Source: Polyangiales bacterium
Lineage (GTDB): Bacteria; Myxococcota_A; Polyangia; Polyangiales; Polyangiaceae
DNA: 64,000 nucleotides
Reading direction: 5' to 3'
Assembly (NCBI GenBank): GCA_038231275.1
Contig: JBBRLQ010000001.1
Span: 1-64,000 of the forward strand
Below the pieces are notes generated by a model that was not told where the DNA came from, made no database searches, and saw only the letters and a list, made by a program, of their open reading frames with translations. A program made the position numbers and the translations under genes. Below are positions 18,079 through 34,594 of the stretch, piece after piece. The stretch's first letter is position 1. Each line of letters starts with the position of its first letter.

Positions 18079-20334
<2,256 letters not shown>

Positions 20335-20426
20335 GGTGTGTCCGGAAATAGGACACTGTCTCGGCGCCCCGTCAACCGCCCCCCGAAACCAAGCGACGGC
20401 CCGCGCGTACGCCCTCACGGAGGCCC

Positions 20427-21206
20427 ATGCGACGCTCGCTCCGATTCCTTTTGCCCGCCACGCTCCTCGTTCTCGCCGCGCCCCTCCTCGCGCTCCTCCG
20501 CGGCGAGCGGCCGGCCCAAGCAACGACGGGCCCGCGCACGCCGGTCCTGGTCGAGCTCTTCACCTCCGAGGGATGCTCATCCTGTCCGCCCGCCGATCGC
20601 ACGCTCGCGCGCCTCGCCCACGATCAGCCGGTGGACGGTGCGCTCGTGGTGCCGATCGCGTGGCACGTCGACTACTGGGACTACATCGGCTGGAGCGATC
20701 CGTTCGCGACCAAGACGGCCACCGAACGCCAGAAGTCGTACGCGCAATGGATGGGCCGCAGCTCGCTCTACACGCCGCAAGCCGTCGTGGACGGACGCGT
20801 CGAGATGAACGGCGGCGACATGTCGTCGCTCTCGCGCGCGATCGACACGGCCGCGCGCGCGCCTCGCGTGAAGGTCACTCTGTCCGTTCGGACGGACGGC
20901 GACGGTCGCGTCGTGGAGATCGTCACGGGCCCTCTGCCCGCCGGAGCCGAGCCGTGCGACGTGCTCCTCGTCGTCGCCGAAAACGAAGCGCACGTCGAAG
21001 TTCCTCGTGGCGAAAACGCAGGACGCACCCTTGACCACATCGCGATCGCGCGCCAGCAGGTGGTCGCCGGGGCAGTGAACGCCTCCGGCGAAACACGCCT
21101 TCAGGCTCGAATTGGCTCAGCAAAACGCCCGTCGTCGGTCGTCGCGGTGGTCTCAGAGCGCCTCAGGCGAAAGGTTTGGGGGGTGGGCATCGTTCCTATG
21201 ATGTGA
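20427..21206 (+). CDS. Secreted DUF1223 thioredoxin-like protein
   Basis: VELFTSEGCSSCPPAD, HVDYWDYIGWSDPF, YTPQAVVDG, RGENAGRTL. Confidence 0.9.
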   Translation: MRRSLRFLLPATLLVLAAPLLALLRGERPAQATTGPRTPVLVELFTSEGCSSCPPADRTLARLAHDQPVDGALVVPIAWHVDYWDYIGWSDPFATKTATERQKSYAQWMGRSSLYTPQAVVDGRVEMNGGDMSSLSRAIDTAARAPRVKVTLSVRTDGDGRVVEIVTGPLPAGAEPCDVLLVVAENEAHVEVPRGENAGRTLDHIAIARQQVVAGAVNASGETRLQARIGSAKRPSSVVAVVSERLRRKVWGVGIVPMM

Positions 21207-22876
21207 GCGATTGGTCGAGCCAGAGGACTGCATGGTACGCTGGGGACTTCCAGAGGGCTTTCACCGTGGCCGACGGGTTCGACCCACGCCGGCGCTCCCA
21301 GGGGCGTATCGGCGCGGTCGTCAAGGACAAATGGCGTATCGACGCCCGCCTGGGGACGGGGGGGATGGCCACCGTGTACGCGGCGACGCACCGGAACGGC
21401 AACCGCGTCGCCATCAAGATGCTCAACATCGACTTCTCGCGCGAGCCGACGGTGCGCTCACGCTTCCTCCGCGAGGGGTACGTCGCCAACGCCGTCGGCC
21501 ACCCTGGCGCGGTGCGCGTGCTCGACGACGACATCGCCGAGGACGGCTGCGCGTTCCTGGTGATGGAGCTGCTCGAAGGCGAGTCGCTCGAGGCGCGGCG
21601 CGAGCGGGTCGGCGGACGACTGCCGATGCAGGAGGTGTTCACCGTCGGCGATCAACTCCTCGATCTCCTCGCCGCGGCGCACCCCAAGGGGATCATCCAC
21701 CGCGACATCAAGCCCGAGAACGTCTTCATTACGCACGACGGCAGCGTGAAGCTCCTCGACTTCGGGATCGCGCGCATGCGCGAATCGAGCGGCGTCGAGC
21801 GGACCGGCACCGGGCTCATGCTGGGCACGCCGGACTTCATGTCGCCCGAGCAAGCGAGCGGGCGCTCCGAGACGATCGACGCGCGGAGCGACATCTGGGC
21901 GGTCGGCGCGACGATGTTCACCCTCCTCTCGGGCCAGTCGGTGCACGTCTCCCAAACGCTTCGCGATCACCTCTACGCGACGGCGACGCGGCAAGCTCGG
22001 TCTCTAGGAATGGCGGCCCCCGACGTGGCGCGGCCGCTCGTCGGCGTCGTGGACCGTGCGCTGTCGCTCGACAAAGAGCGCCGCTGGCCGGACGCGCGCG
22101 CGATGCAAGACGCGCTGCGCTGGGCCTACAAGTCCGTCGTGCACGGCGACACGGACGCCGCGAGCGTCACCATGCACATGGCGCCGGTCGCCGAGATCGC
22201 GGACGAGGCCACGCGCGTCGAGCCCATGAGCATGGAACCGACGAGCGATCCGACGGTGATGCATCCTGTGCCGGCAGAGGCGCGCGGATACCCGGTTGAG
22301 AAGCCGCGCGTCGCGACGCCGGCGCCACCCACCGCGCCGCCGGGAACCGATCCGATCCCGCGCGGCTTCGTGCAGCAGCGCGCGCCGGCGCCGCCGGTGC
22401 ACGGGGCGCCGCAGCCCAATCTTCAGCCTCCGCCGGCGCAGGCGATGCAGGGTGGGTATCCGATGAACCCTGCCTGGCAGATGGGGCAGATGGGGCAGAT
22501 GGGGCAGATGGGGCAGAACGCGCAAGGGCCGTCGGACAGCGGCTCGATGCCCATCATGAACCCGTACTACCAACACGCGCAGGCTCCGTACGCGCAGCCT
22601 CCGTCGACGCTCGGCGCACAGTTCACCGATCCCCGACGTACCACCGGCGCGAGCGCACCGATGAACAGTCGCGGGAGGGCGCTGATCGTGGCGCTCGTCT
22701 TGCTCGTCATCGTCCTCGGCGCTCTGGCGACGCTGCTGCTCGTGGCAGGCCTGCGCGACGCCGCGTTTCCCCGGGCGCGATCCAGCCCGACGGTCGCTCC
22801 CTCGGCGCTGGGCGCTCCCTCGCCGACGTTCGCCGCCGCCGACGCCGCGCCTCCCGTGCTCGTGCCGGCTCCATAA
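21203..22876 (+). CDS. Ser/Thr protein kinase with Pro/Gln-rich linker and C-terminal TM
   Basis: GTGGMA, HRDIKPEN, DFG, GTPDFMSPE; GTGA overlap with upstream stop. Confidence 0.93.
   Translation: MSDWSSQRTAWYAGDFQRAFTVADGFDPRRRSQGRIGAVVKDKWRIDARLGTGGMATVYAATHRNGNRVAIKMLNIDFSREPTVRSRFLREGYVANAVGHPGAVRVLDDDIAEDGCAFLVMELLEGESLEARRERVGGRLPMQEVFTVGDQLLDLLAAAHPKGIIHRDIKPENVFITHDGSVKLLDFGIARMRESSGVERTGTGLMLGTPDFMSPEQASGRSETIDARSDIWAVGATMFTLLSGQSVHVSQTLRDHLYATATRQARSLGMAAPDVARPLVGVVDRALSLDKERRWPDARAMQDALRWAYKSVVHGDTDAASVTMHMAPVAEIADEATRVEPMSMEPTSDPTVMHPVPAEARGYPVEKPRVATPAPPTAPPGTDPIPRGFVQQRAPAPPVHGAPQPNLQPPPAQAMQGGYPMNPAWQMGQMGQMGQMGQNAQGPSDSGSMPIMNPYYQHAQAPYAQPPSTLGAQFTDPRRTTGASAPMNSRGRALIVALVLLVIVLGALATLLLVAGLRDAAFPRARSSPTVAPSALGAPSPTFAAADAAPPVLVPAP
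22478..22516 (+). repeat. In-frame 9-bp tandem repeat (CAGATGGGG)x4 encoding QMG
   Basis: Directly visible. Confidence 0.85.
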
Positions 22877-24469: not shown

Positions 24470-25536
24470 CCATGCCGAACGCGGAGAGAGCCAAGGTCCA
24501 ACGCGCCAAGCGGATCGTCGTCAAGATCGGCTCGCGCACGCTCGCCGGCGACATGGACGTCTACGCCCGCCTCGCCCGCGCGATCGCCGGCGCGCGCGCG
24601 GCGAAGCGCAGCGTCGTCGTCGTGTCGAGCGGCGCGATCGCACTCGGCACGAAGAAGCTCGGCTACCGCGCGCGACCCCGCGAGATGGCGCGCCTCCAGG
24701 CCGCGGCCGCCGCCGGGCAGAGCGTGCTCATGCGCGCGTACGAGGAGGCCCTCGGCGCCGTCGGCATCCCCGTCGCGCAGGTGCTCCTCACGCACGCCGA
24801 TCTCGCCGATCGCGTGCGCGCCAACAACGCGCGCGCCGCCCTCGCAGAGTTGCTCCTCGCCGGCGCGGTCCCGATCCTGAACGAGAACGATTCGGTCGCC
24901 GTCGAGGAGATCAAATTCGGCGACAACGACCAGCTCTCCGCGATGGTGGCGCCGCTCGTCGACGCCGATCTCCTGGTGCTCTTGAGCGACGTCGAAGGCC
25001 TCCTCGACGCAGGCGGCGCGCGCGTTCCGATCGTGCGCGACGTGGCGAAAGAGGCGCTGCCCCTCGTGCGCGCGACGAAGAGCGCCCTGGGCACCGGCGG
25101 CATGGCGAGCAAGGTCGAGGCGGCGCGGCGCGCGACGATGGCCGGCGCGCACGTGGTCATCGCCGACGCGCGCGCCGAGCACATCCTCGCCGAGGTCCTC
25201 GCTGGCGACGACGTGGGCACGCTCTTCTGTCCGACCGGCGAGCGCCTCTCCGCGCGCCGCTACTGGATCGCCTTCACGATTCGCCCTCACGGAGATCTCG
25301 TCCTCGATCGGGGAGCCGTGGCCGCGGTCACCGCCAAGGGCAAGAGCGTTCTTGCCGTCGGCGTCCTCGGCGTGCGCGGCGATTTTCGCGAGGGGGATTC
25401 GGTGCGCCTCGTGGACCCCGACGGCGTCGAGATCGGCCGAGGCCTCTCGCGCTGCTCGGCGGCGGTCGCGGCGGCGCGCGCGGGCCGCGAGGCCGAGGTC
25501 CTCGTGCACCGCGACGATCTCGTCCTCACACGTTGA
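24466..25536 (+). CDS. proB: Glutamate 5-kinase with PUA domain
   Basis: VVKIGS, VSSGA, AAAGQ, PILNENDSV, FGDND, GTGGMASK; C-terminal PUA. Confidence 0.96.
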   Translation: MTMPNAERAKVQRAKRIVVKIGSRTLAGDMDVYARLARAIAGARAAKRSVVVVSSGAIALGTKKLGYRARPREMARLQAAAAAGQSVLMRAYEEALGAVGIPVAQVLLTHADLADRVRANNARAALAELLLAGAVPILNENDSVAVEEIKFGDNDQLSAMVAPLVDADLLVLLSDVEGLLDAGGARVPIVRDVAKEALPLVRATKSALGTGGMASKVEAARRATMAGAHVVIADARAEHILAEVLAGDDVGTLFCPTGERLSARRYWIAFTIRPHGDLVLDRGAVAAVTAKGKSVLAVGVLGVRGDFREGDSVRLVDPDGVEIGRGLSRCSAAVAAARAGREAEVLVHRDDLVLTR

Positions 25537-25567
25537 CGGCGACCTGCTCGAGTCTCGCTAGTCTCGT

Positions 25568-26620
25568 CTAGCGCGCGTACGTGAGGAGCCAGTCGTAAAA
25601 CGAGACGTCGTACGGCGTCGTCCCCGGCGGCGACGCGACGAGCGGAAATTTCTGGGCATCCATCCCGGTGAGCTCGTACGCCGGGTCCCACGCGCTGTGA
25701 CCGACGTCCTTGAACAGCGTGTAGCGCGGCGCGATCGGAGCCGCTGGCGAGCACGCGACGAGCGTGTCGTACGATTTCGTCGCATGGTCGACGGCGGTGA
25801 CGACGTTGTCGACCGCGCCGTGGAAGTACCAGATCGGGATCTGCTTCCACGTGCACTCTTTGCCCTGCGTCGAGTACCAGCCCGACATGGGTGCCGCCGC
25901 CGCGATCTCTCCGCCCGCGTAGTCGCCGAGGTAGTTGTAGACGGGCGCGCCGCCGCCGGAGAGGCCGGTGAGGTAGATGCGCTTCACGTCGACTTGGTAA
26001 TTCTTCTTCGCGAAGTCGACGAAGTCGTGGACGCTCGCGCCGCCACGCTCGGTCATGCCGTTGCGGTCGTCCATCTGCGGCGAGAGGACGACGAAGCGCT
26101 TCTGCGGATCCCACGTTCCGTTCTTGATGTCCTTGGGCAGGCCGTCGCTTGCGACGTTCGGCAGATCCGTGGTGCCGTTGCCGCGCTGACCGTCGCCGTG
26201 AAAGAAGATGATGACAGGCCAGTCGTCGCGCGACGCGTACCCCGCAGGCACGTACTCGAGGTAGCCGAGCTTCGCGCAGGTACTCCCTTTGGTGTGCGCG
26301 GATTGGGTGCCCGGTGTCGGGACGACCGGAGGCGTGCACGCGCCTGGGCGCGGGAAGATGGCGCCGTCAGAGGTGTCGGCGCGCGCATCGGACGGACCGC
26401 CTGCCTCGCCATCACCCGGCGACGCTCCGTCACCGCCGCCCGACGACCCGGATGACCCGGACGAGCCGGACGAGCCGGACGAGCCCGCACCGTCGACGCC
26501 ACTCGAGCCCGCGTCGTCGAGGCCTGGCGTCGAGGACGACGACGCGTCCCCGCATCCGACGAACACGACGACCGCGACGAACGGCCCAAACGCAAGCAAC
26601 GACGCGCGCTTCATCGTCAT
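25568..26620 (-). CDS. Lipoprotein alpha/beta-hydrolase (predicted esterase/peptidase)
   Basis: Lipobox FVGC; PVIIFFHG, RIYLTGLSGGG (GxSxG), FHGAVD, GHSAW. Confidence 0.85.
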   Translation of the reverse strand: MTMKRASLLAFGPFVAVVVFVGCGDASSSSTPGLDDAGSSGVDGAGSSGSSGSSGSSGSSGGGDGASPGDGEAGGPSDARADTSDGAIFPRPGACTPPVVPTPGTQSAHTKGSTCAKLGYLEYVPAGYASRDDWPVIIFFHGDGQRGNGTTDLPNVASDGLPKDIKNGTWDPQKRFVVLSPQMDDRNGMTERGGASVHDFVDFAKKNYQVDVKRIYLTGLSGGGAPVYNYLGDYAGGEIAAAAPMSGWYSTQGKECTWKQIPIWYFHGAVDNVVTAVDHATKSYDTLVACSPAAPIAPRYTLFKDVGHSAWDPAYELTGMDAQKFPLVASPPGTTPYDVSFYDWLLTYAR

Positions 26621-26694
26621 TGGGTGTACGCGACGCGGCGCGCCCGAGCCGGCGATACTTTTCGCCTGCGCCACGCGCCTACACCATGCGCGCC

Positions 26695-29600
26695 TCACGG
26701 CGTCGCCGGCGGTCCTTGCACCGGACCGCGCTTGTTCGGAGGCAGATTCAAATCGAACGCCTGCGCGCCGCGCGACAACGTGTCCGACGCTTGCGTCAGC
26801 ATGTCGGGGCGAATCGCGACGTCGACGGGGCGCCCGCTGACCGAGCCGTGGCAGTTGCCGCAGAGCGCGTCGAAGAACTCGCGTCGGAACGACTGGTGCG
26901 CCTGCTCCCCCGGATAGAATACGAACGTCTCCTTCTGGAAGCGCGGGATGTTCTTCTTCTTCGAGTCGTCGGTGTCGGGCAGGTGGAAGAGGAAGGGCAG
27001 ACCGCCGGGCATCGTGAAGTGCGTCGACGAGTCCGCCGCGACAGGCACGTTGCCGAGCAAGCGACGCCGCACGTACACCTTGCCGAACGCGTCGGAGACC
27101 ACGTTCGCGCCACCGCTGTCGAAGCTCGTCACGCCGTTGTCGGGCGGGAGATCCTCGTACACGTCGAACGCGTTGAACTTCTCGACCGTGCGCCCCGTCG
27201 GCGTGTTCTGGAAGAGGAGCGATGCGAGCGCCGCGCTGTCGAGGACGTACACGTCGGCCGCGCTCTGGCCCTCGTTCACCTGCGTGTGGCCGTTCGGCTC
27301 CTCGAGGCTCGAGCGGAAGAGTCCCTTCGCGGGTCGGGCATACACGGCGACCGCCTCGATCTCCGCGCTCCCCGCCTCGCCGAGCAACTTCGTCTTGGCG
27401 CCCGTGACCGGATCCATCACGTAGAGATCGTAGTCGCCGCCGAACGCGCCAAGGTCGCTCGCGGCGCCGAAGCTCACGAGCATTTTCGCGCCGGGGAGCG
27501 GCGACGGGGACGTGTACGCGCCGCTCGTCGCCTGCTTCACGTGCCCCGACGCGGTCGCGTCCGGCAGCTTGAGCGAGTGCAGGAAGAACTGCGGCTCGAG
27601 CGACATCGGCGACGTCGGATCGACGACCCCCGGATCCACGAGAAAATCAGCCGGATCGTTGCTCGTGAAGTCGACGCCGAGCGAACGATTGAAGACGCCG
27701 ATGGTGCCGCCCGCGTGGGGCGCGTCCTTGTCGCGGAAGATCGCGGCGAAGTTCTTGTCGGCGAGCTCCACGACGTACATCGCCTCGTGGTAGCCGATCG
27801 ATCCGCGCTGCGCGTAGAGCGGGTGGTAGTCACCGCCGTCGACGTTCACGCGGCGGAGCGCGAGCTGGTAGAAGCCCGGCGACCGCTTCTCGGCGCTCAG
27901 GATGACGCGCCCGTCGCTCATGAAGCTCGGGAGCCGCTCGGTGTTGAGGAGGAACGTCAGCTGCCGAATGCGCGTGGCCCCCGCTTGCCCGGGCGACGGC
28001 TCGAAGACGTACAGGTTCGCGTTGGGCTTCGTCGGATCGGACGGCGTGCGCTGAGGTCCCGAGTAGTCGTACGTGTCGCCGGCCGCGCGGGGTCCCTGCG
28101 CGGCGGTGTCCCAGTTGCCGCGCGTCGACGCGAAGACCAAGTGCGAGGCGCCGGCATCATCGGGAGGGCTGTAGGCAGGATCGAAGTTGTGGATGAAGAG
28201 GCCGTTCTGCTGCGCGTCCGATCCCGCGTTGATCGCGACGTGCGCCTTGCAGCCCGTGCCGTCGGCGTTCATCTCGTAGATCTTCAGCGGCGCCGACGCG
28301 CTCGAACGCGCCGCGAAAGCGACCAGTTTCCCGTCCCACGACACGGCCGGCCGCTTGATGTCGGCGGTCGCGACGTCGAGCCCGCACCCGGAGGTGACCG
28401 AAGCGTCGGCGGCCACGGTCACGTCGCCCGTGGCCGTCATCGTCGCCGCGACTCGCCGCAGATCGGCGCCAGGCGCATACGTGTCGAAGTCCTGCGCGCG
28501 ATCGGGCAACGCGCCGAGGGGCCGCTTCACGTAGACGATCGCCGTCATCGGATCGAGCTTGCGGACCGCCCTCTCGCGCACGAGCCACTCACGCACGACG
28601 CAATAGGCCGGGATCTTGTCGAGCCCCTTGTCGAAGTCGAACGGCGCCGCGATCGCCAGCGCGTCGCATGCGGCAGGTGACGCCGGATCTTTCCCGAAGT
28701 CCTCGAGGAGCGGCCCGCCGCGGTGTGCGATCCCCTGCCCGTTCGTCTGGAGCTCGGGCCGATACAAGTTCTTGCGCACGAGGCGGCTCGCGGTCGGATC
28801 GTCGCTCTCGAGCGCGAGCTGCGCGATCGACAGCGCGTAGTTGCGCCGCGTCGCGCTGAGCGAGAAGCTCCCGCCCGATCCACCGCGCAGTCGGTAATCG
28901 TGGAACATCGCGGCCGAGTGGCACTGCAGCATCATGCAGCCCTTCTTGACGAGGATCGGCTGCACCTTGTGCGCAAAGAAATCGAAGCCCGCGTCGGTCG
29001 CGTCGACCTTGGGCGGTCCGTGCTCCTTCGCCCACGCGCTGAGGGCCTGGTAGCCGTCATCGCCCTGCGCGGGGAAAATGACGCCCCCTTCGTGGAAGGA
29101 TCCTCCTTGCGAGGGCGACAGCGGGCGCCGCAAGAGCTCGCTCTGCTCGGGGCTCTGCGCGAGGTAGTCCTGCGCGACGAAGAAGTTCCAGCGCTTCTGC
29201 TCCGGCGTATCGCCACACGTCAGATACAGCTCGTTCGCCGCGGTGCCGTGGCAGTTGCCGGCGGCGCACGTCTTCTTGATGACGTCCGACACTTTGCCCT
29301 GGAACGTCCCGAAATCCGGGTTCGGCGGGTCCTTCGTCGGATCGAACCCCACGGCGGCCGGCACGTTGCCCGAGCACGGCGTCCGCACCGCCGACGGCGG
29401 GGACGCGCCGGAATTGTTCTCGGTTGCTCCGTTCTCGATCCAGCGGCGCAGCGTCTGGTACGCCGTCGCCGTCGGATCCAAAATTGGACCGCCGGTGTGC
29501 TTGATGTCGGTCGTGATGCCGACCTTCTGCCCGTCGTAGGTCTGCACCTCGACCGCGAAGGGCGGGACGTTCTTCACGAGGAATGCCGGCTGCCCGTACG

Positions 29601-29871
29601 GGCCGTAGTCGAGGAGCAAATCACGCCGTCGCGCGACGCCTGCGTACGTCGATGCGTCGAGGTTGCCGAACGCGTTCCCCTTGTCGCTCGCGACGTGGCA
29701 GCCGACGCCTGTGTTCGTCCGCACGCACGACGTCACCAGGACCGGCGAGATCGTCCGATTGAAGAACGACGTGTCCTGCGGCTCCTTCTTGGTGCACGCC
29801 GCCGAGACGACGAGCGCCGTCGCGGCCGAAAGGACGCTCGCGATGAAGGTGGATGATCTCGCCAAAGCCAA
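26695..29871 (-). CDS. Multiheme lipoprotein: three cytochrome-like domains, TolB-like propeller, hydrazine-synthase-alpha-like region
   Basis: Lipobox SAAC; CX8CH, CX4CH, CX4CH each followed by HxGG; PAVSWDGKLVAFA; FYPGE...CGNCH. Confidence 0.8.
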   Translation of the reverse strand: MALARSSTFIASVLSAATALVVSAACTKKEPQDTSFFNRTISPVLVTSCVRTNTGVGCHVASDKGNAFGNLDASTYAGVARRRDLLLDYGPYGQPAFLVKNVPPFAVEVQTYDGQKVGITTDIKHTGGPILDPTATAYQTLRRWIENGATENNSGASPPSAVRTPCSGNVPAAVGFDPTKDPPNPDFGTFQGKVSDVIKKTCAAGNCHGTAANELYLTCGDTPEQKRWNFFVAQDYLAQSPEQSELLRRPLSPSQGGSFHEGGVIFPAQGDDGYQALSAWAKEHGPPKVDATDAGFDFFAHKVQPILVKKGCMMLQCHSAAMFHDYRLRGGSGGSFSLSATRRNYALSIAQLALESDDPTASRLVRKNLYRPELQTNGQGIAHRGGPLLEDFGKDPASPAACDALAIAAPFDFDKGLDKIPAYCVVREWLVRERAVRKLDPMTAIVYVKRPLGALPDRAQDFDTYAPGADLRRVAATMTATGDVTVAADASVTSGCGLDVATADIKRPAVSWDGKLVAFAARSSASAPLKIYEMNADGTGCKAHVAINAGSDAQQNGLFIHNFDPAYSPPDDAGASHLVFASTRGNWDTAAQGPRAAGDTYDYSGPQRTPSDPTKPNANLYVFEPSPGQAGATRIRQLTFLLNTERLPSFMSDGRVILSAEKRSPGFYQLALRRVNVDGGDYHPLYAQRGSIGYHEAMYVVELADKNFAAIFRDKDAPHAGGTIGVFNRSLGVDFTSNDPADFLVDPGVVDPTSPMSLEPQFFLHSLKLPDATASGHVKQATSGAYTSPSPLPGAKMLVSFGAASDLGAFGGDYDLYVMDPVTGAKTKLLGEAGSAEIEAVAVYARPAKGLFRSSLEEPNGHTQVNEGQSAADVYVLDSAALASLLFQNTPTGRTVEKFNAFDVYEDLPPDNGVTSFDSGGANVVSDAFGKVYVRRRLLGNVPVAADSSTHFTMPGGLPFLFHLPDTDDSKKKNIPRFQKETFVFYPGEQAHQSFRREFFDALCGNCHGSVSGRPVDVAIRPDMLTQASDTLSRGAQAFDLNLPPNKRGPVQGPPATP

Positions 29872-29887
29872 GCCTCCGCTGAGGCTT
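29870..29887 (-). promoter_or_regulatory. Hairpin covering the RBS and TTG start of the 1058-aa gene
   Basis: Minus strand AAGCCTC-AGCG-GAGGCTT-G; GGAGG and TT lie in or at the stem. Confidence 0.45.
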
Positions 29888-29892
29888 CTATC

Positions 29893-30816
29893 TTACAGCC
29901 GTCGGAGCGCGATCGTCGCCTGATCGCGGACGAGCCCGTTCGCGTCGCCCTGCGCGAGGCCCTGCAGCATGCCGCGCGAGGACGCATCTCCGAACGCGCC
30001 GAGGGCGTGGCACGCGGCGGCGCGGACGTCGGCGTCGGGATCGCTCTTGGCGAGCGTCGTCACGGTCGCGATCGCGTCGCGCGCGTGCATGGCGTCGAGG
30101 AGCTCGAGCGCGCGGCGGCGAACGTGGGCGTCGGCGTCGCCGAGACCGCGCGTGACACTGGGCGCGTCGGCGAACTGGTTGATGCGCGAGGCGGCGCTCA
30201 TCGCCGCGATTTTCACGCGCGGATCGGCGTCGGCCATCGCCTTGCCGAGCGCGCCGGCGCCGTCGTCGTTGAGGCGCCCGAGCGCAGAAGCTGCCGCCAC
30301 GCGAACGGTCGCGTCGCCGTCGGCGGTCACCGCAGTGGCGCACGCTTCGATGCCCGGCGACATCAAGAACTCGCCGAGCGCGTACGCCGCGAACGCGCGC
30401 TTCCGCGGATCGCCGTCGCCCTTGAGCGTAGTGAGCGTGCGCTCGTACGCCTCGCCCGGACCGAAGACGCCGAAGATGCGGCGACGAAGCCACCACGCCG
30501 CGATCTCGCGCGTCTTGGCGTTGGCGTCGTAGAGGAGCGGCTCGACGACCTGGATGCAATCGAGGCACTCGACCTTTTCTCCGTGCTCGAGCGTCTCCCA
30601 GATGGCCGTCGGCGCCCCGCTGGAAGCGACGCTCTTGATGCGATCGGGGGTCGACAAAAACTCGATCTGATCCGGCGCGATGTTCCCGTACACCGCCGCT
30701 GTGCCGGCGCCGTCCTTCACGGGGTTCTCGCTCTTGGCGGTCGTTCCGCTGACGAGCGCCGCGCACGCGATCGCGGCGCCGAGGATGGTGGAGAGTGTGG
30801 AGGTTCGCATGGCCAT
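29893..30816 (-). CDS. Secreted HEAT-repeat protein
   Basis: Signal peptide; ECLDC; repeated D.D..VR.AA..ALG. Confidence 0.85.
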   Translation of the reverse strand: MAMRTSTLSTILGAAIACAALVSGTTAKSENPVKDGAGTAAVYGNIAPDQIEFLSTPDRIKSVASSGAPTAIWETLEHGEKVECLDCIQVVEPLLYDANAKTREIAAWWLRRRIFGVFGPGEAYERTLTTLKGDGDPRKRAFAAYALGEFLMSPGIEACATAVTADGDATVRVAAASALGRLNDDGAGALGKAMADADPRVKIAAMSAASRINQFADAPSVTRGLGDADAHVRRRALELLDAMHARDAIATVTTLAKSDPDADVRAAACHALGAFGDASSRGMLQGLAQGDANGLVRDQATIALRRL

Positions 30817-30821
30817 GTCCC

Positions 30822-33149
30822 TCAGTACTTCACGCCGCTGACGGGGTCGTTGTTGAAGGCCGCGAAGTTGGTGTTCTGGCGCGCCCAATACTGGCCGCCG
30901 AGATCCATCACGCGGATGAGCATCTGACGCTCGGCGTCGGTGAGCGTGTTGGATGCGCCGGTGTCCTCGGGGTGCATCGCGCCCTGAAACGCCGTCGCGC
31001 CGTCCGCCGCCTTCACGTTGATCTTGGCGATCAGCGCCGAGCCACGCGCGTTCGCCGGTACGCCCCACTTCGGCGGGATCGTCCCCGTCACGGTCGTCTG
31101 CATCCCCATCTCGAGCGCCGCGGGGAAGAAGATCGACACGTACGACGCCGGGTACGTCGCGACCCTGCGGTCGTAGTAGACGGTGACCGGCGTGTCGGAC
31201 ATGTCGAAGCGCGGGATGTGGTACGTCGTCGCGAGCCCCGTGACCGGATCGGTCCGCGCCATGTCGTAGAACGTCTGCGGCCCGCTGCCGTTCGTCTTCG
31301 AGTTGTGGCAGCCCGCGCACTTCGCGGTGAGCACCGGCTGGACCTTCGTGTTCCATCCGTACTCGCCGTTCGCGACGCGATCGGCGATCGGGATCATGAA
31401 GTTCTCGGCTTGCGCTTGCTCGGCGCGCGTCGGGTTCTGGCCGAAGACCGGCACGCCCTGGCCGGTGCGGCTCTCGTGGCAGCCGACGCAGCGGCGATCC
31501 TCGCCAGGCATGCCCTGGATCCAAAGACCCTGCGAGCGAATGGCGAGACCGAACTTGTCGATCGGCTGGAGGTGCACCGGCAAGTACGGCGGGATGTTCG
31601 CGAGCCAGCTGCCGTCGGCGTAGACCTTCGCCTCGCCGAGGACGGCGGCGCCCTCGTGCATCGTGAGGCCGAACATCGTCACGCCCTTCGCGGCCTCGCT
31701 GGAGAAGCCCTCGATGATGCGCACCGCGACGGCGTCCTTGAGCGCGACGTCGAGGCCGACGTTCGAGAACTGCGCGCCGTCCACGCTCTCCTTCAAGCTC
31801 GTCTGCGCAACGTTCACGCTGCCGACACGCACCGGGCTCGTCGAGTCGGTGGCGTGCTGGAGATCACCGATGACGGGCGGGAGCTTGCGCGCCGCGACCG
31901 GGAGCGCGTTCAGCTCCCACGTCTGGCGATCGTTGTAGAGGAGCTGGTTTTTCTGCGAGACCGGGTCGTAGATGTAGACGCCGAAGTCCGGCGGCGTCAG
32001 CGACTGCTCGGCGAGATCGTTCACCGGCCCGTCCGCCCACGACACGAGGAAGCGCCCGTCGGGGAGCGTGCTCGGCTCGCGGTAGCGACCGGCCGGCGAC
32101 GGACCGTTCGACGTCGGGACATCGGGCGTCAGGATCTTGTATTTGACGTTCTCCTCGTCGAGGCACGCATGTCCAACGGCGGCGGCGCTCGTCGGATCGA
32201 CGCACACCGGATCGTTCGCATTTCGCGCGTCGATCTCGATGAGCGCGCCGGCGTGGATGGTGCGGCTGCGCGTGGTGCCGACGCCGATCATGACGTTGGG
32301 CTTGCCCCACTGCTCGCGCACGCTGAAGAGCGCGTTGGCGGGCTTGCCGTGCTGTCCGCCGACCGCGATCATCTGCGTGCCGTCGGGGTTCGCGGCGAAG
32401 AGCTTCACGTCGTTGACCGGGCCGAGGTGCTCCCAGCGCGAGTAGCCGATCTTCCCGTCGGCGCGGAGGAACGGCGCGACCGTGTGCGAGAGGTTCTGCG
32501 CGGCGAGCCGGCGATCGGCGTCACCACCGTCGACGGTGATCGTGGCGAGCTGCGTGACTTCGCGCGAGTGCTCGTACTCGTCGGCGCGCGTTCCCATCGC
32601 CGTGTACATCTGGTTCGTCACGAACGCGATGCGGCCGTTGCCCTCGCCGGGCAAGTAGATCGGGTTGATGTCGTCGGCGTCGGTGAGCGTCTTCTGGTGG
32701 ATCTCGAACTTGCCGTCGGCCCCGGGCGCGAGCTGCGCGGTGTAGATGTGGTAGTGGTCGTTCGGATCCTTCTTCATCGAGAAGACGACCTGGGTCGCGT
32801 CGAACGAGACGTCCGCGCCGTTGAAGTCGGCCTGCGCGAACGCGGCGGTGATGTTGGTGACGACGCCGTCGGCGCGCGCGGGCGCCATGATGTTGAGGCT
32901 GCCGCCCGGCACGTAGCGCTGGTAGTCGAGCACCTGCCCATTGCCGCCCGCGACGTCGACCGTGACCTGACCGTTGTCGCCGACGACCGTGTGCTGCCGC
33001 TTGATGAAGACGATGGCCGACACGCCGGCGCTGGTGCTCTCGTCTGTCGACTTGCTGCAGCCGGCCACGACGCCACCGAGCAAGCTCGGCGCGACGACGA
33101 CGCCGACGAGGAGCGCGAGGCTGGGAATCCGAAGGAGCGGCAGCTTCAT
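30822..33149 (-). CDS. Hydrazine-synthase-alpha-like diheme lipoprotein
   Basis: Lipobox VAGC; propeller motifs DINPIYLP, DGKIGYSRWEH, NPDGT; LGEAKVYADGS...P...PVHLQPIDKFG; WIQGMPGEDRRCVGCHE; VQPVLTAKCAGCH. Confidence 0.85.
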   Translation of the reverse strand: MKLPLLRIPSLALLVGVVVAPSLLGGVVAGCSKSTDESTSAGVSAIVFIKRQHTVVGDNGQVTVDVAGGNGQVLDYQRYVPGGSLNIMAPARADGVVTNITAAFAQADFNGADVSFDATQVVFSMKKDPNDHYHIYTAQLAPGADGKFEIHQKTLTDADDINPIYLPGEGNGRIAFVTNQMYTAMGTRADEYEHSREVTQLATITVDGGDADRRLAAQNLSHTVAPFLRADGKIGYSRWEHLGPVNDVKLFAANPDGTQMIAVGGQHGKPANALFSVREQWGKPNVMIGVGTTRSRTIHAGALIEIDARNANDPVCVDPTSAAAVGHACLDEENVKYKILTPDVPTSNGPSPAGRYREPSTLPDGRFLVSWADGPVNDLAEQSLTPPDFGVYIYDPVSQKNQLLYNDRQTWELNALPVAARKLPPVIGDLQHATDSTSPVRVGSVNVAQTSLKESVDGAQFSNVGLDVALKDAVAVRIIEGFSSEAAKGVTMFGLTMHEGAAVLGEAKVYADGSWLANIPPYLPVHLQPIDKFGLAIRSQGLWIQGMPGEDRRCVGCHESRTGQGVPVFGQNPTRAEQAQAENFMIPIADRVANGEYGWNTKVQPVLTAKCAGCHNSKTNGSGPQTFYDMARTDPVTGLATTYHIPRFDMSDTPVTVYYDRRVATYPASYVSIFFPAALEMGMQTTVTGTIPPKWGVPANARGSALIAKINVKAADGATAFQGAMHPEDTGASNTLTDAERQMLIRVMDLGGQYWARQNTNFAAFNNDPVSGVKY

Positions 33150-33164
33150 GGCAATAGAAAGGAA

Positions 33165-33180
33165 AGCATGGGCCGCGCCA
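33165..33180 (-). promoter_or_regulatory. Putative sigma54 promoter of the HZS-like operon
   Basis: Minus strand TGGCGCG-GCCC-ATGCT (GG-N10-GC). Confidence 0.5.
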
Positions 33181-33329
33181 AGTCGGAACCCAACTCTTTC
33201 CGCGCCCCTCGCTGCGCGCGCGCACTGGATCAAGAGGGGCTCACCCCTGACCGTGGGGGGCAGTCACCCCGCGGCGTGAAGGCCGAATCGCTGGATGTGG
33301 TCGCACGTGGTTCGGGGCGGCGCGCGAAG

Positions 33330-33740
33330 TCAGTCGCGCTTCAAACGGAAGGCGTCGGGCAGGAGCTTCTTCAGGTTCGTGTCGCGGCGCGTGACGCCGC
33401 GCGGGCCTTCGCCGACGAGCGCGATCGGCAGGTCGCGCGCAAACTCCCACAGCACTTGACGGCAGATCCCGCACGGCGAGCCCGCGCGCGGCCCCGCGGT
33501 GACGACGGCGCACGCAACGGGGTGACGCTCACCCGCCGCGACCATTTGGACGATCGCGTTTCGCTCCGCGCAAATCGTGGCGCCGAAGGTCGCGTTTTCG
33601 ACGTTGCATCCTGCGAAGATGCGGCCGCTCTTCGTCGCGATCGCCGCGCCGACGGAGTACTTCGAATACGGCGCGTAGGCGCGACGACGAACCTCGCGCG
33701 CGGCGGCGATGAGCTGCGCCATGGTCACCGCGCCCTTCAC
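33330..33740 (-). CDS. cdd: Cytidine deaminase
   Basis: AYAPYS.Y.VGAA, GCNVEN, CAE, SPCGICRQ. Confidence 0.95.
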   Translation of the reverse strand: MKGAVTMAQLIAAAREVRRRAYAPYSKYSVGAAIATKSGRIFAGCNVENATFGATICAERNAIVQMVAAGERHPVACAVVTAGPRAGSPCGICRQVLWEFARDLPIALVGEGPRGVTRRDTNLKKLLPDAFRLKRD

Positions 33741-34594
33741 GGCGTCACCTTCGCCGCGCGGACGACCCAGCCTCCCAGCAGCGTGAGGAGCGAGTCGCGA
33801 CGGGCGCGCGCCGTCTCTTCGACCTCTTTGTGATCGAGCTCGCCCTTGCCGATCCCCGCCGCGAGGTTCGTGATGCACGACATCGCGCCGACCTTCACGC
33901 GCATGTGACGGAGCGCGATCACCTCGGGCACCGTGCTCATGCCGACCGCCTGCGCGCCCAGGCCGCGGAGCATTCGGACCTCGGCCGGCGTCTCGTACGA
34001 GGGACCGAGGAGGCCCGCGTAAATCCCCTCGCGGAGATCGATCTTGGCGTCGCGGCCCACGGCGAGGAGCGCCTCGCGCAGCACGGGATCGTACGCGTGG
34101 CTCATGTCCGGAAAGCGCGGGCCGAGCGCATCGTCGTTGGGGCCGAGCAGCGGCGTGGTCCCCATGAGGTTCAGGTGATCGGTGACGACCATCAGGTCGC
34201 CGGCGCTCCACGTCGGATCGAGCCCGCCCGCCGCGTTCGTGAGCAGCACGCAGCCGACGCCCAGGCGCGCCATCGTCCGCACGCCGTGGACGACGCTCGC
34301 CATCGGGTGTCCTTCGTAGAGGTGCACGCGCCCCTGCATGCAGACGACGTCGACGCCGCCCGTCTTGCCGAAGCACATGTTGCCGGAGTGCCCGACGACG
34401 TTCGACGCCGGCAAATGCGGGAGCTCCGCGAACGGCACCTTCACGAGCGTGTCCAGGGAATCCGCGAACGCCCCGAGGCCGCTCCCGAGGACCAGCCCCA
34501 CCTTCGGCGTCGCGGCCGCTCCCGTCACGCGTGCACGGATCGCGCGAACGGTCTCCTCGACCCTCACGCTCGGGGCGGTTTCGGCAGCAGTCAT
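33737..34594 (-). CDS. punA: Purine nucleoside phosphorylase (trimeric family)
   Basis: LGSGLG, QGRVHLYEG, TNAAGG, GPSYETPAE, VGMST, ITN. Confidence 0.93.
   Translation of the reverse strand: MTAAETAPSVRVEETVRAIRARVTGAAATPKVGLVLGSGLGAFADSLDTLVKVPFAELPHLPASNVVGHSGNMCFGKTGGVDVVCMQGRVHLYEGHPMASVVHGVRTMARLGVGCVLLTNAAGGLDPTWSAGDLMVVTDHLNLMGTTPLLGPNDDALGPRFPDMSHAYDPVLREALLAVGRDAKIDLREGIYAGLLGPSYETPAEVRMLRGLGAQAVGMSTVPEVIALRHMRVKVGAMSCITNLAAGIGKGELDHKEVEETARARRDSLLTLLGGWVVRAAKVTP

Follow-up and report, generated by a model that had tools for sequence, protein, structure and literature searches.

A conserved gene trio of two hydrazine-synthase-alpha-like proteins and a HEAT-repeat protein in Polyangia

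Hydrazine synthase (HZS) was, to our knowledge, long believed to have no relatives, and recent work has brought to light a wide family of alpha-like haem proteins. What members of this family may do outside anammox bacteria is the question raised by a locus in the first 64,000 nucleotides (nt) of contig JBBRLQ010000001.1 of a Polyangiales bacterium (assembly GCA_038231275.1); this whole stretch is called the window below. An earlier note, made from the sequence alone, placed here an operon of two HZS-alpha-like haem lipoproteins flanking a secreted HEAT protein, in a host of myxobacterial appearance. The three genes, named A (HZS-alpha-like protein), B (HEAT protein) and C (diverged paralogue of A), were recovered at the same coordinates and with the same spacing, co-oriented on the minus strand in the order A-B-C with intergenic gaps of 5 nt (A/B) and 21 nt (B/C):

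30822-33149, minus strand: gene A, 775 amino acids (aa), ATG start, TGA stop
29893-30816, minus strand: gene B, 307 aa, ATG start, TAA stop
26695-29871, minus strand: gene C, 1058 aa, TTG start, TGA stop

The third-position GC content of these frames is 0.90-0.92, which marks them as the coding ones; the long, arginine-rich plus-strand open reading frames over the trio were dismissed on the same measure as antisense artefacts. All three products carry signal peptides, in line with the export proposed in the earlier note. The loci nearest to the trio belong to Polyangia (Myxococcota) metagenome genomes and to Labilithrix luteola, which agrees with a myxobacterial host, one of soil or sediment.

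Protein A is a full-length, true homologue of HZS-alpha. The Pfam model HZS_alpha (PF18582) matched its residues 487-559 with 60.3 bits against a gathering cut-off of 26.6. A profile built from A and 29 relatives (30 sequences, the relatives 25-81 % identical to A; the broad set below) was aligned with PDB chain 5c2v_A at an E value of 1.1e-60, profile positions 26-148 and 182-697 pairing with residues 22-136 and 216-767, i.e. nearly the whole protein. The AlphaFold (AF2) model of A, with a predicted local distance difference test (pLDDT) score of 84 and a predicted template modelling (pTM) score of 0.84, found its best fold match in 5c2v_D (E 1.2e-30, template modelling (TM) score 0.64); the second match was TolB (E 5e-10), covering the propeller alone. 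Pfam score, profile and fold all agree on the likeness claimed earlier, and since the profile and the fold both match HZS-alpha chains, A is built of the three HZS-alpha domains. HZS-alpha itself combines a propeller with a middle domain, which binds haem alpha-I, and a C-terminal domain, which binds the bis-His-ligated haem alpha-II (available part of Hagglund et al. 2025, PMC12758564); the counterparts in A are a six-bladed PD40/TolB-like propeller, an HZS_alpha middle domain and a C-terminal cytochrome c domain. The signal peptide of A ends with VAGC, and the cysteine (Cys31) occurs in all 121 sequences of a close alignment (120 relatives and the window's A), 54 of which have a lipobox in its strict form and 84 in a relaxed form. 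The two haem motifs of A are:

31476-31490, minus strand: haem motif 1 of A, CVGCH (residues 554-558), equivalent to HZS haem alpha-I
31305-31319, minus strand: haem motif 2 of A, CAGCH (residues 611-615), equivalent to HZS haem alpha-II

The first motif stands in the segment PGEDRRCVGCH, with three residues between PGE and the first Cys, and is invariant in the close alignment (121/121) as well as in the broad set (30/30); the second is invariant in 121/121 close sequences. The propeller holds a set of polar residues (D117, D190, E191, Y192, W239, H241 and D256), each present in 27-30 of the 30 broad sequences.

The residues of A were compared with those of the HZS structure by reading the mapping off the HMMER alignment, where the 5c2v chain index plus 27 gives the numbering of PMC12758564. 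His726 of A aligns with the distal ligand His772 and is found in 121/121 close and 26/30 broad sequences. According to the available part of PMC12758564, Tyr591 is the proximal ligand of haem alpha-I, and Cys303 and His587 bind zinc. Tyr591 is replaced by Thr562 in A and Cys303 by His267, so haem 1 of A should have ordinary His ligation. The NCBIfam equivalog NF052339, for which 800 bits are needed, gave 43.6 bits with A and 19.5 with C. A CCP_MauG search of the genome gave six matches, on contigs C25, C5, C2 (two), C9 and C23, and no CCP/MauG-type homologue of the gamma subunit in the window or on its contig; domain scans revealed no beta-gamma or FG-GAP genes in the module or its flanks. The genome, 94 % complete, gave no hit to nirK, nirS or clade II nosZ that passed the respective cut-off. 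A search with PF13447 (HAO-type multihaem) gave no match and is uninformative, its control having matched nowhere either. Hydrazine synthase proper was rejected on the equivalog score, the replaced key residues and the beta and gamma partners missing from the module. Judged by its sequence, the trio is not a hydrazine synthase and does not make hydrazine; the earlier note had likewise set it apart from anammox.

Protein C is a diverged, old paralogue of A. It scored 15.8 bits with Pfam HZS_alpha and three of its relatives 19.9-26.5 bits, all below the threshold that A passes. An hhalign comparison of the A and C profiles, on the other hand, gave a probability of 100 and an E value of 1.1e-38 over 496 columns (A 39-596 paired with C 438-1050), and the top fold match of the C model, itself mediocre (pLDDT 64.8), was 5c2v_A (E 1.4e-20). 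These two results place C in the HZS_alpha superfamily and bear out its description as a second HZS-alpha-like protein. C begins with a mostly helical N-terminal region of 440 aa, followed by propeller and middle domain (residues ~438-1050); whereas A has the whole three-domain architecture of HZS-alpha, C is without a counterpart of the C-terminal haem domain. C has a signal peptide and its Cys26 is kept in 118 of 120 relatives. It is probably lipidated, which is less sure here because the lipobox is mostly atypical and takes the strict form in just 13 of the 120. Four Cys/His motifs were recognized in C:

29695-29727, minus strand: conserved motif Cx8CH of C (residues 49-59), Cx6CH in distant orthologues
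29248-29268, minus strand: conserved motif Cx4CH of C (residues 202-208)
28918-28938, minus strand: conserved motif Cx4CH of C (residues 312-318)
26848-26862, minus strand: canonical CGNCH of C (residues 1004-1008), equivalent to haem alpha-I

All four are conserved in 118-120 of the 120 relatives, and they are retained by two orthologues of ~35 % identity, in which the N-terminal three read Cx6CH, Cx4CH and Cx4CH. A V-x-P-[IV]-L-like stretch stands before each N-terminal motif, as it does before haem motif 2 of A. The PGE...CxxCH segment reported for both large proteins is indeed present in each, with a spacer of 14 residues between PGE and the first Cys of CGNCH in C versus 3 in A. The count of six candidate haem sites made in the earlier note also stands, two in A and four in C, but canonical CxxCH is found in only three of them (CVGCH and CAGCH of A, CGNCH of C), the others being the Cx8CH and the two Cx4CH motifs of C. 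Haem attachment at the latter is putative; Cx4CH haem sites occur in some cytochromes c3, and very long CxnCH spacers need dedicated lyases in Wolinella. For the N-terminal region Atlas gave weak cytochrome leads at 0.89-0.90. The proposal that this region consists of repeats of A's haem domain was dropped, the hhalign probability being 14-54 % over 20-31 columns, a likeness of motifs only. In the pocket, invariant Glu645, Glu661, Arg663 and Arg689 of C occupy the positions of His222, Trp239, His241 and His267 in A and the wider family, and the alpha-type sites of A and C therefore differ.

Features of c-type cytochromes seen in the trio are CxxCH motifs, signal peptides and maturation genes in the host, from which we infer haem loading; attachment of the haem is predicted. 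Three genes of the Cytochrom_C_asm family were detected, by which the host genome possesses a system for cytochrome c maturation. One Cytochrom_C_asm match (G000:C1:454499-455107) lies ~400 kb away on the window's contig within an open frame of 1317 aa; this CcsA/CcmF-type frame may encode a fused CcsBA-type synthase.

Protein B has a plain signal peptide and is a HEAT-repeat protein (HEAT_2, 85.9 bits). Residues Glu77, Glu80, Cys84, Cys87, Trp108, Trp109 and Arg113 are invariant in 22 orthologues, the two cysteines forming the following motif:

30556-30567, minus strand: CLDC (CxxC) motif of B (residues 84-87), both Cys in 22/22 sequences

Models of PBS-lyase type scored low on B (NblB 35.6 of the 300 bits needed, CpcE 18.6 of 330). 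B was thus not accepted as a CpcE/F- or NblB-type protein, since no match reached the equivalog level and only the generic HEAT_2 passes.

A (residues 40-765) and B (residues 45-307) were folded together with a separate alignment for each. The predicted complex scored 0.81 (runs 0.77, 0.86 and 0.81), compared with 0.00 for the best of three controls. A score at this level is met by 116 of 157 solved complexes and by 2 of 215 mismatched pairs, counts that serve as a rough calibration only, own alignments having been supplied. The runs share at least 62 % of contacts, and the pLDDT of the partner is at least 82. We know of no solved HZS-alpha/HEAT complex, so a pass due to a memorised structure looks unlikely. 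The predicted footprint of B on A includes loops of all six blades (residues 67-72, 150-157, 186-195, 208-212, 240-247, 267-272, 294-298 and 378-382) and a contact with the middle domain (485-492); on the side of B, invariant Glu77, Glu80 and Trp108 fall within the predicted interface. The model supports docking of B on one face of A's propeller. Of the "heterodimer plus scaffold" suggested earlier, the contact between A and the HEAT protein is thus backed by the prediction; the association of A with C is one that we infer.

Conservation of the gene order was followed in 25 related loci, from Polyangia metagenome genomes and Labilithrix luteola. The order A-B-C was found at 24 of them, the exception stopping at a contig edge just after A, and at two of three loci of more distant families (~33 % identity), where the flanks consist of other housekeeping genes (MutS, SPOR protein, RibF). 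As the flanking genes differ between loci, the trio moves as a unit, and the conserved neighbourhood that the earlier note had asked about exists. A second, tandem trio upstream at the distant loci was considered and discarded, the genes there being MutS, SPOR protein and a kinase. Among 201 genomes sampled from the phylum, A (counted at E <=1e-20) is present in 13, the window's genome included, all in the window's own class, and C in 20, among them all 13 with A, where the C match is strong. The window's genome holds one PF18582 match only. The module is also present in a cultured organism, Labilithrix luteola DSM 27648 (locus L015).

Beyond the trio, the HZS_alpha (PF18582) superfamily is very large. 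At least 1197 relatives of A were obtained at E <=0.001 among 8000 candidates scored, and an exhaustive search gave 2783 clusters (50 % identity) at E <=0.001 and 1134 at E <=1e-10. All 120 listed relatives carry PF18582 and are named "hypothetical protein" or after the domain. Among the control genomes, that of the model gut bacterium Bacteroides thetaiotaomicron has a protein above the HZS_alpha cut-off, which could give the superfamily a genetically tractable representative.

The C-type lineage is wider than the trio, given extra C paralogues and C-like genes in genomes without A. Three Polyangia genomes (G125, G190 and G090) have two or three C-type paralogues each, and seven more Myxococcota genomes without A hold weaker C-like genes, with 25-27 % identity in the six examined (L030-L035). 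A B-like neighbour was found for none of these six in the fetched flanks (tblastn, E 1e-3); they were assigned to other subfamilies and not counted as trio members. Irregular copies were also met. In two metagenome genomes with long contigs (L020, 8296-10315, and L026, 8001-10196) the match to A is broken into two or three pieces that overlap or are shifted, and in L026 B and C are in pieces as well, a pattern that suggests frameshifts or assembly indels and not intact genes. The C orthologue of a genome from the same order (G059:C370:5075-8149) has one in-frame TGA, which could be a sequencing error, a pseudogene mark or a recoded codon.

Upstream of A the earlier note had seen a sigma-54-like promoter:

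33166-33180, minus strand: sigma-54-type -24/-12 motif TGGCGC-N5-ATGC, TGGCGCGGCCCATGC, its end 17 nt short of the A start codon (ATG)

TGGCGCGGCCCATGC has two mismatches to the sigma-54 consensus (GG-N10-GC, -24/-12), and window-wide there were 54 two-mismatch matches where 47.8 were expected, so that this motif alone is at chance level. The 250 nt upstream of A were then compared between the window and 22 loci, L019, L020 and L021 being excluded for an A start that is cut off or split. A motif with GG and GC cores and differing spacers was present at 18 of these 23 kindred loci, versus 129 of 3430 background windows (3.8 %), and no sigma-70-like site was found within 25300-33800. The promoter call thus holds on the comparison of loci, whereas the window motif by itself is no better than chance, and the trio is most likely transcribed from a sigma-54 promoter. 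A sigma-54 enhancer-binding protein (TPR repeats, Sigma54_activat, HTH_8) and an adjacent Ser/Thr protein kinase are encoded at 18079-20559 (minus strand) and 21035-22876 (plus strand), respectively, the activator gene lying ~6 kb beyond the 3' end of C and ~12.6 kb from the motif upstream of A; the activator is a possible candidate for the regulator of the trio.

On the observed homology, architecture and conservation of the trio and its motifs, and on the model-supported A-B contact, the trio is read, with a probability of about 60 %, as a haem oxidoreductase complex of the HZS-alpha superfamily that is anchored in the envelope, is controlled by sigma-54 and acts on a small substrate. A, B and C would constitute a self-contained three-gene module whose products form a haem-protein complex anchored in the envelope. 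Propeller and middle domain of A would hold a c-type haem at the catalytic haem alpha-I position, with ordinary His ligation, and its C-terminal domain a bis-His relay haem. The HEAT solenoid of B would cover one whole face of the A propeller, as a subunit. C would retain an alpha-I-type haem site of its own with different pocket residues, and its N-terminal region, standing in place of the relay domain, might carry up to three more haems on Cx4-8CH motifs. Such a complex would oxidise or reduce a small substrate in the periplasm, with the relay haems carrying electrons between it and the respiratory chain. Every testable part of the earlier proposal of an envelope redox complex distinct from anammox has held.

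Several observations weigh against this reading. Catalysis is argued from homology alone, the family having no member of known function outside anammox. The third genome of the more distant families has A and B adjacent and C 41 kb off. The promoter count of 18/23 comes from kin loci and therefore overstates the independent support, clear as the signal is, and with the window motif this close to the ATG the leader would be almost absent or very short. The N-terminal region of C resembles A's haem domain at the level of motifs only and is poorly modelled (pLDDT 30-80). The predicted interface is not set apart by conservation, the means being 0.668 versus 0.652 elsewhere for B (p 0.31) and 0.427 versus 0.45 elsewhere for A (p 0.68). 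There was no HEAT fusion among 18 long relatives of A, nor in a search for longer relatives, which returned one protein (with a LamG-like domain) and, being nearly empty, is weak evidence. The supplementary table of PMC12758564, as far as available, does have an entry, matched by HZS-alpha, for a Verrucomicrobia protein of 1243 aa under the name "HEAT repeat domain-containing protein".

Other explanations start from the same features. The complex could convert nitrogen oxides or hydroxylamine at its alpha-I-type haems, like hydrazine synthase, either for detoxification of NO or NH2OH or in an N-N bond-forming step. This would suit a full-length HZS-alpha homologue that keeps the bis-His ligand His772, absent from the clade I homologues in the available part of PMC12758564, and a module with two alpha-I-type sites. 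It is nevertheless unlikely in view of the changes Tyr591 to Thr562 and Cys303 to His267, the equivalog score far below its mark (43.6 versus 800 bits), the window lacking a CCP/MauG-type gamma homologue and the genome yielding no nirK, nirS or clade II nosZ above cut-offs. That the substrate is an organic or glycan-derived molecule is very unlikely: the idea comes from the contexts of other family members, where an F5/8 type C domain is fused to one relative and a LamG-like domain to another, while the trio has no carbohydrate-binding module or carbohydrate-active enzyme gene beside it and is flanked by housekeeping genes (proB, a purine nucleoside phosphorylase family gene, MutS, RibF).

B might instead be a maturation factor (chaperone, thiol-redox helper or lyase) for the Cx4CH and Cx6-8CH sites of C, comparable with CpcE/F, and not a subunit. 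Its invariant CxxC with Glu77 and Glu80, the weak HEAT-level matches to the NblB and CpcE models and its conservation next to C, a protein with conserved non-canonical motifs, would all fit. In the model, however, B sits on A, at the folded propeller, and the sites of A are all canonical CxxCH; the CpcE score is 18.6 where 330 is needed, and HEAT repeats are generic, which makes this role quite improbable. Regulated envelope functions of myxobacteria are typically under sigma-54 control, and this, together with propellers resembling TolB, could be taken to mean that the trio proteins are not enzymes at all and serve to shuttle electrons, to sense redox state or as TolB-like scaffolds of the envelope, with haem in a structural or signalling role. 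A reported precedent is a non-redox cytochrome c of Myxococcus that acts on a propeller protein (available part of PMC8833165). Against it, conservation extends to all three domains of the enzyme-subunit build, the catalytic haem position included, and to the polar residues of the propeller; a non-enzymatic function is thus distinctly unlikely.

A bolder scheme can also be drawn, which is speculative and on the whole doubtful. The trio might be a two-active-site haem enzyme on HZS logic, the alpha-I-type haems of A and C being wired by relay haems on Cx4-8CH and the HEAT subunit replacing beta to shape or gate the substrate path, for a two-step conversion of a small inorganic N, O or S species in the periplasm of aerobic soil myxobacteria.

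The surroundings of the trio in the window are of housekeeping type, with proB on one side and, on the other, a purine nucleoside phosphorylase family gene, a TPR protein and an RNase T-type exonuclease. A further lipoprotein gene follows C:

25568-26620, minus strand: alpha/beta-hydrolase lipoprotein gene (Abhydrolase_2, 24.8 bits), ~74 nt after C

This esterase gene was rejected as a member of the module and is placed outside it because it is present at only 1 of the 25 related loci (L002). Between the phosphorylase-family gene and A, a short gene at 33330-33721 (minus strand) ends ~180 nt upstream of A; its product, with the motifs CAERNA and PCGICRQ, is presumably a cytidine deaminase-like protein. 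A terminator scan gave no signal above chance.

The trio is a compact, conserved three-gene form of the HZS-alpha-like family. It alone does not open a long-standing question, and offers a practical entry point to the role of non-anammox members, with a cultured carrier, a model-supported HEAT partner and two diverged alpha-type sites to compare. It also allows haem binding by expanded Cx4-8CH motifs to be tested in Polyangia. The "undescribed system" of the earlier note has to be divided. The HZS-alpha-like family itself is already known, as a named Pfam family (PF18582) and from the available parts of PMC12758564 and PMC10732223, the latter of which proposes that HZS-like enzymes are a broad family acting on other substrates. 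What appears to be undescribed is the alpha/HEAT/alpha-prime arrangement, together with the expanded haem motifs and the sigma-54 control that go with it; literature searches, consisting mostly of listings, found no published description of it.

Comparison with known systems sets the trio apart at several levels. Six-bladed TolB/PD40 propellers share the propeller fold and PD40 repeats, but TolB has no haem domains and matches the propeller only (TM 0.29 normalised to A). Among PF18582 proteins at large, with which A shares a score above the gathering threshold, others add F5/8 type C or LamG-like domains and extra cytochromes or propellers, and C remains below the Pfam threshold. HZS-alpha of Kuenenia stuttgartiensis (5C2V/5C2W chain A) has the same three-domain build as A, with two CxxCH and the His772 position; A differs in Thr at Tyr591, His at Cys303 and the lack of a ~60-residue insert after the haem alpha-I motif. 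Compared with hydrazine synthase as a whole, the trio is without beta and gamma partner genes, its A is lipid-anchored by prediction, and the host belongs to Polyangia, with no anammox genes found.

The closest published counterparts are the non-anammox HZS-like clusters of clades I-IV described in the available part of PMC12758564, which consist of an alpha homologue and a fused beta-gamma, often with an FG-GAP/CRTAC1 gene. HZS-alpha homologues outside anammox are reported there from Planctomycetota, Desulfobacterota and a few others, with key residues not conserved. Its main text, as available, mentions neither Myxococcota nor HEAT, and Myxococcota proteins are listed only in its supplementary hit tables. 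The trio resembles these clades in its HZS-alpha homologue, whose haem alpha-I pocket is canonical, which lacks the HZS key residues and which has a presumed partner encoded beside it. It differs in the partners, with a HEAT protein and another alpha-type paralogue where the clades have beta-gamma (CCP-like) or FG-GAP proteins, and, unlike the clade I homologues, which have no His772 equivalent, A keeps this residue.

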